The notes under the pieces are model-generated. The model did no database searches. It was not told where the DNA came from and saw only the letters and a list, made by a program, of their open reading frames with translations. Shown in pieces: positions 42,147 through 42,396 of a stretch of 64,000 nucleotides of DNA; positions within the stretch are counted from its first letter, which is position 1, and each line of letters starts with the position of its first letter. The position numbers and the translations under genes were made by a program. The DNA lies in assembly GCF_000027125.1 (NCBI RefSeq), contig NC_017626.1. One strand, given 5' to 3'. Origin of the DNA: Escherichia coli 042 (GTDB taxonomy: Bacteria; Pseudomonadota; Gammaproteobacteria; Enterobacterales; Enterobacteriaceae).

Positions 42147-42222
42147 GGCCCTTTAGCTCAGTGGTGAGAGCGAGCGACTCATAATCGCCAGGTCGCTGGT
42201 TCAAATCCAGCAAGGGCCACCA
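42147..42222 (+). tRNA. tRNA with anticodon CAU (Ile2/lysidine type or Met), ileZ-like
   Basis: manually folded cloverleaf: 7-bp acceptor ggccctt/aagggcc, TTCAAAT T-loop, anticodon loop ctCATaa, encoded CCA. Confidence 0.85.
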
Positions 42223-42229
42223 TCACATA

Positions 42230-42306
42230 CCGCCATTAGCTCATCAGGAAAGAGCGCCAGCCTTCGAAGCTGGTTGCGCGGAGTTCGGGTCCCCGAAGGC
42301 GGTCCA
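42230..42306 (+). tRNA. tRNA-Arg (anticodon UCG), argN-like; atypical (one mismatch each in acceptor and T stems)
   Basis: manual fold: D-arm gctc...gagc, anticodon stem ccagc/gctgg with loop ctTCGaa, T-loop ttcgggt. Confidence 0.6.
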
Positions 42307-42319
42307 TTATCTGTATCCT

Positions 42320-42396
42320 GCGTTGTTAGCTCAGCCGGACAGAGCAATTGCCTTCTAAGCAATCGGTCACTGGTTCGAATCCAGTACAACGCGCCA
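42320..42396 (+). tRNA. tRNA-Arg (anticodon UCU), argO-like
   Basis: manual fold: perfect acceptor gcgttgt/acaacgc, anticodon loop ctTCTaa, T-arm actgg ttcgaat ccagt, encoded CCA. Confidence 0.85.

Follow-up and report, generated by a model that had tools for sequence, protein, structure and literature searches.

The three consecutive tRNA genes at positions 42147-42396 of a 64,000-nt stretch of the Escherichia coli 042 chromosome (hereafter, the window) almost certainly constitute, judging from their sequence, the already known ileZ-argN-argO tRNA cluster of lambdoid (933W/Stx-type) phages. It is probable that in this known cluster the two outer tRNAs are functional-looking while the middle tRNA-Arg(UCG) is hypomorphic or dead; that the middle gene has lost most or all of its function and is on the way to becoming a pseudogene is, taken by itself, also the likely reading. 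This confirms the observation made in an earlier note on the same DNA and supports its interpretation in part.

ARAGORN, run on the whole 64-kb window, finds exactly three tRNA genes, with the same boundaries and anticodons as the earlier note had given (Table 1). All three exceed the gathering score (29) of the Rfam tRNA model RF00005, with E-values that exclude chance matches. CCA is encoded in each of the genes, and the spacers between them measure 7 nt (CAU/UCG) and 13 nt (UCG/UCU). A terminator-like hairpin followed by T8 starts 15 nt 3' of the third tRNA, and a terminator scan places four further plus-strand terminator-like sites between it and the next gene. The description of the genes as a phage tRNA triplet with terminators directly after it is thus borne out by the hairpin at 42411 and by the identity of the cluster.

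Table 1. Features of the window referred to in the text, with strand and supporting evidence
Feature	Position	Strand	Evidence and remarks
C4 antisense RNA	25810-25897	-	Rfam
isrK	25922-25998	-	Rfam
DicF	26238-26289	-	Rfam
sok antitoxin RNA	35332-35507	+	Rfam
Q-family late antiterminator gene	39652-40473	+	Pfam Antiterm PF03589, E=1.5e-49
Candidate late promoter, TTGATT-16 nt-TGgTAAATT	40478-40506		By eye; 8/12 consensus positions, not reported by the scan
Intrinsic-terminator-like hairpin, then T6, tR'-like, just past Q	40556-40571	+	Terminator scan
Second terminator-like hairpin, then T6	40884-40901	+	After a 65-aa ORF at 40700-40897
DNA N6/N4 methyltransferase gene	41048-42097	+	Pfam N6_N4_Mtase, E=2.3e-44
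tRNA, CAU anticodon (ileZ-like)	42147-42222	+	ARAGORN tRNA-Met(cat); Rfam 72.5 bits, E=4.9e-15
tRNA-Arg(tcg) (argN-like)	42230-42306	+	ARAGORN; Rfam 43.4 bits, E=5.1e-07
tRNA-Arg(tct) (argO-like)	42320-42396	+	ARAGORN; Rfam 70.1 bits, E=2.4e-14
Terminator-like hairpin GGCTCGC-TTTT-GCGGGCT, then T8	42411-42428 (hairpin), 42411-42436 (whole)	+	
STnc100 sRNA family, full copy	42472-42662	+	Rfam 136 bits
STnc100, weak third match	42701-42874	+	Rfam 30 bits, under the gathering score of 47
STnc100 sRNA family, full copy	42940-43149	+	Rfam 165 bits

A 351-nt segment around the cluster finds matches in 289 phage records; in 275 of these the match covers 80% or more of the segment, at 93-95.5% identity. 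Most of the records belong to Stx2-converting phages and to other lambdoid phages of E. coli, in which the genes are annotated as ileZ, argN, and argO. Over the surrounding 2.4 kb, the window is 100% identical to prophages in the chromosomes of several E. coli strains, where PGAP labels the three genes tRNA-Ile, tRNA-Arg, and tRNA-Arg. The earlier note had not recognized the triplet as this long-known cluster. The order CAU, UCG, UCU and the spacing are those of phage Stx2a_1447 and of 69 sampled clusters, and three tRNA genes each are recorded for the phages 933W, VT2-Sakai, Min27, Stx2-II, and Stx2-86 (PMC4631060).

In the window, host genes extend up to ompW at approximately 20.8 kb and are followed by a mosaic lambdoid prophage, which lacks stx and is integrated next to ompW of the E. 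coli chromosome. The relevant part of the prophage is ordered as Q, methylase, three tRNAs, terminator, STnc100-like elements, SASA esterase, holin, lysozyme, and Rz. The Q-family gene is annotated as 'antitermination protein' in a near-identical record, and the methyltransferase gene lies directly 5' of the tRNAs, as it does in Stx2 phages. A queH-like gene of a related prophage is absent from the window.

The CAU tRNA is a tRNA-Ile2, predicted to carry a lysidine-AU anticodon and to read AUA, an assignment based on its identity to K-12 ileX and on its TilS base pairs. It is identical to ileX at 68 of 76 positions (89.5%), and to metT/metU at 52 of 77. The major identity elements of E. coli TilS are base pairs 4:69 and 5:68 (PMC11947777); in cloverleaf numbering, the CAU tRNA carries C4:G69 and C5:G68, like ileX, whereas metT/metU have U4:A69 and A5:U68 instead. 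It also has the complete set of IleRS elements (A73, C4-G69, U12-A23, C29-G41, and the A37/A38 context; PMC9976931). The whole anticodon loop (CUCAUAA) and four of the five anticodon-stem pairs equal those of ileX, so the gene shares anticodon loop, TilS elements, and IleRS elements with K-12 ileX/ileY, the lysidine-dependent tRNA-Ile2 that reads AUA. Hallmarks of an initiator are missing: G1-C72 is paired, and the anticodon stem is not closed by three G-C pairs. The earlier note had held that the CAU tRNA could not be assigned to Ile2 or Met from sequence alone and had proposed a check for TilS determinants; both determinants are present, and together with the ileX identity and the PGAP label tRNA-Ile they show that view to be too pessimistic. 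The gene should be labelled Ile2, although ARAGORN and several phage records still say Met.

Relative to ileX, the CAU tRNA has one compensated change (U6-A67 for C6-G67), A27·C43 in place of G27·U43, and further single changes at positions 20a, 26, 44, and 59. Its T-loop (UUCAAAU) is canonical and allows the U54:A58 pair. The A27·C43 mismatch (window positions 42173 and 42189) is the only one in its stems and is kept in essentially all sampled ileZ copies. An A·C pair substitutes for wobble pair geometry only with a protonated A, and TilS is sensitive to the anticodon stem. Of the 110 sampled ileZ copies, 96 are identical (π=0.007).

The UCU tRNA forms a perfect cloverleaf with zero mismatches and a canonical T-loop (UUCGAAU). 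Arginine identity has been ascribed to A20, C35, position 36 (U36 or G36), and A/G73 (PMC9976931), and the UCU tRNA matches this set with A20, C35, U36, and G73. It shares the anticodon loop (CUUCUAA), A20, G73, and the length of 77 nt with K-12 argU, the minor tRNA-Arg(UCU) that reads AGA/AGG, yet only 56 of the 77 positions are identical and the acceptor and T stems differ. Judged by these comparisons, it is a distinct phage lineage of argU's isoacceptor, predicted to read AGA and, more weakly, AGG. Among the sampled clusters, argO has π=0.057.

In the middle tRNA (UCG), explicit cloverleaf numbering confirms the two mismatches reported in the earlier note: the acceptor stem contains A6·A67, and the T stem A52·C62. 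ARAGORN accepts the gene rather than rejecting it, and none of the other registers and boundaries tried pairs better or gives perfect stems; the fully paired 7/4/5/5-bp cloverleaf of a canonical tRNA is not formed. The T-loop (UUCGGGU) has G58 in place of the near-universal A58, which removes the A58 partner of U54:A58, a pair named as a tertiary interaction (PMC9976931). The D arm, the anticodon arm and loop, A20, C35, and G36 are intact. The first pair is C1-G72, and the discriminator is U73, which departs from the A/G73 element of arginine tRNAs. Both features are present in every sampled allele, including all 33 distinct 77-nt alleles and the perfectly paired ones among them, and are therefore family traits, not damage. 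G58, C1-G72, U73, and the A27·C43 mismatch of the CAU tRNA had gone unmentioned in the earlier note.

The window allele differs from every well-paired allele by G52A and U67A, and from most of them also by A58G. Its nearest paired relative, the type of locus L031, already has G58, and the window allele is separated from it by G52A, U67A, and one D-loop base. All three changes are uncompensated and affect structural positions. In ViennaRNA calculations, which describe unmodified RNA without tertiary contacts and are to be read as relative figures only, the cloverleaf of the window allele has an energy of -20.0 kcal/mol versus -31.3 kcal/mol in intact alleles, a loss of 11.3 kcal/mol. The gap between this cloverleaf and the minimum free energy (MFE) structure of the allele is 7.0 kcal/mol, versus 1.5 kcal/mol in intact alleles. 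The back-changes A52G and A67U together bring these figures to the level of intact alleles. The Rfam score falls correspondingly short (43.4 versus 54-59.5 bits in intact alleles).

An alternative hairpin of the T region (U54-G58 with C63-A67) appears in the MFE structure of the allele and is strengthened by A58G and U67A. It was rejected as a selected structure, since intact alleles reach -32.8 kcal/mol in their best fold and the window allele only -27.0 kcal/mol.

Of 5,426 complete E. coli genomes, 245 contain the exact 77-nt middle allele, among them that of the type strain ATCC 11775, and in these PGAP always annotates it as tRNA-Arg and not as a pseudogene. Among the sampled clusters it occurs in eight, and derived sub-variants exist. 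A literature search found no data on the maturation, charging, or expression of the middle tRNA.

For comparison with related prophages, clusters were drawn from IMG/VR with the anticodon arms of the outer two tRNAs as sole anchors, which kept the sampling of the middle gene free of bias, and were analyzed by local ARAGORN and cloverleaf threading. Both outer tRNAs are present in 110 clusters (107 IMG/VR loci, the window, and two annotated records), among which the stretch between them occurs in 50 distinct versions. In this sample, which is redundant and contains many near-identical prophages, so that counts do not equal independent events, the middle gene forms a perfect cloverleaf in 44 of the 110 clusters, is of the window's type (A6·A67 and A52·C62, with the G58 T-loop) in 16, has one to four other mismatches (e.g., C1·A72, C2·A71, C31·A39) in 20, is disrupted by indels in 29, and is replaced by an unrelated tRNA-Leu in one.

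The indel-disrupted copies are not called by ARAGORN and have either a 28-nt segment in place of the anticodon arm or a 66-nt remnant. Where the 28-nt segment (AGACGACACGATAACAGGGTTGTTGGTG) stands for the anticodon arm, as in about a quarter of the sampled clusters (L008, around 7153-7255 on the minus strand; L012; L024; and approximately 25 further IMG/VR loci), the T-loop is shortened, and neither Rfam nor ARAGORN finds a tRNA. The acceptor-stem sequences persist even in the scrambled middle genes. Rfam scores form a graded series from intact alleles (54-59.5 bits) through the window lineage and similar alleles (42.9-45.3 bits) to scrambled copies (below 29 bits).

In seven loci (L165, L166, L174, L175, L176, L207, and L243), the 5' half of argN is fused to the 3' half of argO, with the junction inside the shared anticodon-loop sequence GCCTTC/TAAGC (the slash marks the junction). 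In these loci neither Arg tRNA is callable, and ileZ stays 100% identical; the sequences look like products of recombination that deleted one gene's length. Two other loci, L179 and L180, have an intact, perfectly paired argN body in which the anticodon is changed from UCG to UCU, next to an intact ileZ. In L180 a normal argO follows, so that the phage would have two UCU tRNAs. Scans at spacings of 60-90 and 110-139 nt turned up no locus that had cleanly lost just the middle gene while keeping its two neighbors, and no relatives of the middle gene were found in phages outside the E. coli lambdoid group, to which the full triplet is confined as well.

Nucleotide diversity of the middle gene (π=0.19, or 0.10 in ungapped copies) compares with 0.17-0.31 in spacers and flanks. 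The 33 distinct 77-nt alleles, whose divergence is shallow, contain zero compensatory double changes; their paired fraction equals that of shuffles, and pair-breaking changes are about as frequent as wobble-preserving ones. With so little divergence this covariation test says nothing about function, though its outcome agrees with an absence of structural selection. From these comparisons, the middle gene is under relaxed constraint across this phage group and changes at approximately the spacer rate. The gene thus shows two marks of a pseudogene or decaying gene, an uncompensated loss of conserved pairs relative to intact homologs and a near-neutral substitution rate. The suggestion of the earlier note that the middle gene may be a pseudo-tRNA is borne out in its direction by the comparative evidence (alleles, Rfam series, π, and fold energy). 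Its other suggestion, that the tRNA may need editing, finds no support in the sequences, the mismatches being plain uncompensated substitutions relative to intact alleles in relatives; moreover, we know of no such tRNA editing described in E. coli.

Codon demand was assessed from the longest non-overlapping ORFs of the window, 42 prophage genes (11,075 codons) against 20 adjacent host genes (5,652 codons); the annotation of NZ_CP160125.1 was not used, as the window is a mosaic relative of that record and not colinear with it throughout. Per 1000 codons, ATA is used 8.3 times in the prophage versus 3.5 in the host (2.3×, p=3e-4), AGA 7.8 versus 2.3 (3.4×, p=5e-6), AGG 4.9 versus 0.5 (9.2×, p=4e-7), CGG 13.9 versus 2.8 (4.9×, p=1.5e-13), and CGA 6.3 versus 4.4 (1.4×, p=0.13). 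The rare-codon rationale offered in the earlier note therefore stands for ATA and AGA, which, like AGG, are rare in the adjacent host genes and enriched in the prophage, in agreement with the outer two tRNAs supplying these codons. It does not hold equally for CGA: without significant enrichment of this codon, the CGA rationale for the middle tRNA is weak. Through wobble, the UCG tRNA could also serve CGG, and this speaks to some degree against its being wholly dispensable. CGG has no dedicated prophage tRNA unless the UCG tRNA wobbles onto it. GGA is likewise enriched in the prophage genes (2.2×; 20800-64000) and has no dedicated prophage tRNA.

The layout of the region suggests how the triplet would be used. 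From a late promoter just past Q, Q-modified polymerase would pass both terminators (40556 and 40884) and go on to transcribe the methylase gene and the tRNAs, so that the triplet would be transcribed mainly after induction, when Q permits read-through. Host RNase P and 3' processing enzymes would release the tRNAs from the transcript. TilS is expected to convert C34 of the first tRNA to lysidine, upon which IleRS would charge it with isoleucine and AUA would be read, while ArgRS would charge the third tRNA for decoding of AGA/AGG. The presumed outcome is an improved supply of AUA and AGA/AGG decoding for phage genes in lytic growth. The two outer genes appear to be under strong purifying selection, and the middle tRNA of the window prophage probably folds or matures poorly or lacks stability, and would contribute little.

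Some working tRNAs tolerate a single A·C or A·A mismatch, and ileZ itself keeps an A·C mismatch despite its strong conservation. The oddities of the middle tRNA-Arg(UCG) might thus be tolerated idiosyncrasies of a fully working molecule that decodes CGA and CGG in late expression. Such a molecule would agree with the acceptance by ARAGORN, an Rfam score of 43.4 against a threshold of 29, the PGAP label, the intact A20, C35, G36, anticodon loop, D arm, and anticodon arm, and the 4.9× enrichment of CGG in prophage genes; the identical allele in 245 genomes could reflect retention rather than recent spread. This reading is nevertheless unlikely, as the three lineage-defining changes all lie at structural positions and none is compensated, U54:A58 is lost through G58, the cloverleaf loses 11.3 kcal/mol, U73 is off the arginine element, and the gene as a class changes as fast as the spacers do, about a third of the sampled relatives having scrambled, truncated, or chimeric copies. 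That the gene is instead a labile 'test bed' retained for a reason besides CGA decoding is very unlikely. It could then serve as a tRNA-shaped processing signal that releases the flanking tRNAs across the 7- and 13-nt spacers, or could be a locus that repeatedly switches specificity, as exemplified by the UCG-to-UCU change in two loci; if so, the family-wide C1-G72/U73 would mark a tRNA-like RNA with unusual charging or none.

Retention purely for a non-decoding role, be it as punctuation recognized by RNase P/RNase E or as a precursor of regulatory fragments, has little chance of being correct. Processing of a polycistronic late transcript would require only a rough tRNA shape and, with such short spacers, processing of the neighbors could depend on the middle element; the lack of a precise middle deletion at the scanned spacings and the acceptor-stem sequences persisting in scrambled forms point the same way. 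However, the chimeras lose half of the middle gene along with half of argO, conservation does not exceed the spacer level, and covariation is absent among the 33 alleles. In some virulent phages, spare tRNAs replace host tRNAs cut by anticodon nucleases; phage tRNAs with altered anticodon loops can evade tRNA-targeting defenses, and tRNA-Arg species are targets of colicin D. This might suggest that the triplet provides such counter-defense spares, with the middle tRNA as a nuclease-resistant variant. This is scarcely credible here: the anticodon loops of the outer tRNAs equal those of the host (CUCAUAA as in ileX, CUUCUAA as in argU), leaving the idea of spare tRNAs unsupported; the oddities of the middle tRNA lie in the T arm and acceptor stem and spare the anticodon loop; and a UCG tRNA that could be replaced is absent from the host. 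Sequencing or assembly errors in the window can practically be dismissed as the source of the mismatches, since they are excluded by the identical 77-nt allele in 245 independent complete genomes and in eight sampled clusters. The decay of the middle gene between two functional-looking neighbors thus stays the probable reading.

Several small RNAs lie in the same prophage. The STnc100 copies (42442-43149) fill the slot of stxAB in Stx phages, and each ends in a terminator hairpin; Stx2a_1447 has one STnc100 copy just past stxB (L001 6706-6921). The minus strand has a strong terminator (GCCCGCGTCTCCCAGCGCGGGC, then T7; 43178 to 43157) that faces the last STnc100 copy convergently, and a weak OmrA-B-like match (25 bits) overlaps this terminator. 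At the equivalent position by STnc100, related loci contain the anti-sRNA AgvB (L005 3794-3853, L031 1-47) or AsxR (L009 1355-1407), so that the region 43150-43238 on the minus strand of the window may encode an unannotated small RNA. Four further prophage sRNAs (C4, isrK, DicF, and sok) score above their Rfam gathering thresholds, in the regions 25810-26289 (-) and 35332-35507 (+). Between the holin and lysozyme genes lies a YdfR-family gene (45596-45911, +), which PGAP reports as frameshifted in the 99.3%-identical stretch of NZ_CP160125.1; this hints that the lysis module of the prophage may be partly degraded.

Knowledge of the cluster dates back to the first Stx2 phage genomes, reportedly to its description with the 933W genome by Plunkett et al. 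in 1999, and the allele is already annotated in hundreds of RefSeq genomes. Modestly new are the explicit Ile2 assignment, the recognition of the window argN as a derived, damaged allele, and the contrast between argN decay and ileZ conservation. The near-invariant ileZ versus the near-neutral argN suggests that selection maintains the supply for AUA and AGA/AGG, not that for CGA. In automatic annotation, the damaged middle allele passes as a normal tRNA-Arg. The finding is ordinary, and its importance beyond housekeeping is small.

With the cluster of 933W and VT2-Sakai, the window shares the anticodons, their order, the tight spacing, and the place in the late operon after Q and a DNA methylase gene. 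Clusters of Stx phages are 93-95.5% identical to it in nucleotide sequence, with ileZ and argO essentially identical. In Stx2a_1447, ileZ/argN/argO lie between the DNA methylase gene and stxA; unlike the Stx2 phages, the window has no stxAB 3' of the tRNAs and contains two to three STnc100-like elements and terminators instead. Its argN is a damaged allele that differs by G52A, A58G, and U67A from the perfectly paired argN of the Stx2a_1447 type. Large virulent phages (T4-like and others) carry tRNA sets with the same rationale, thought to offset differences in codon usage. The CAU and UCU portions of the cluster have distant relatives in T4-like and many other phages, and adjacent pairs of CAU and UCU tRNAs are common in viral contigs. 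In contrast to the virulent phages, the window contains a temperate lambdoid prophage with only three tRNAs, placed inside a Q-controlled late operon.
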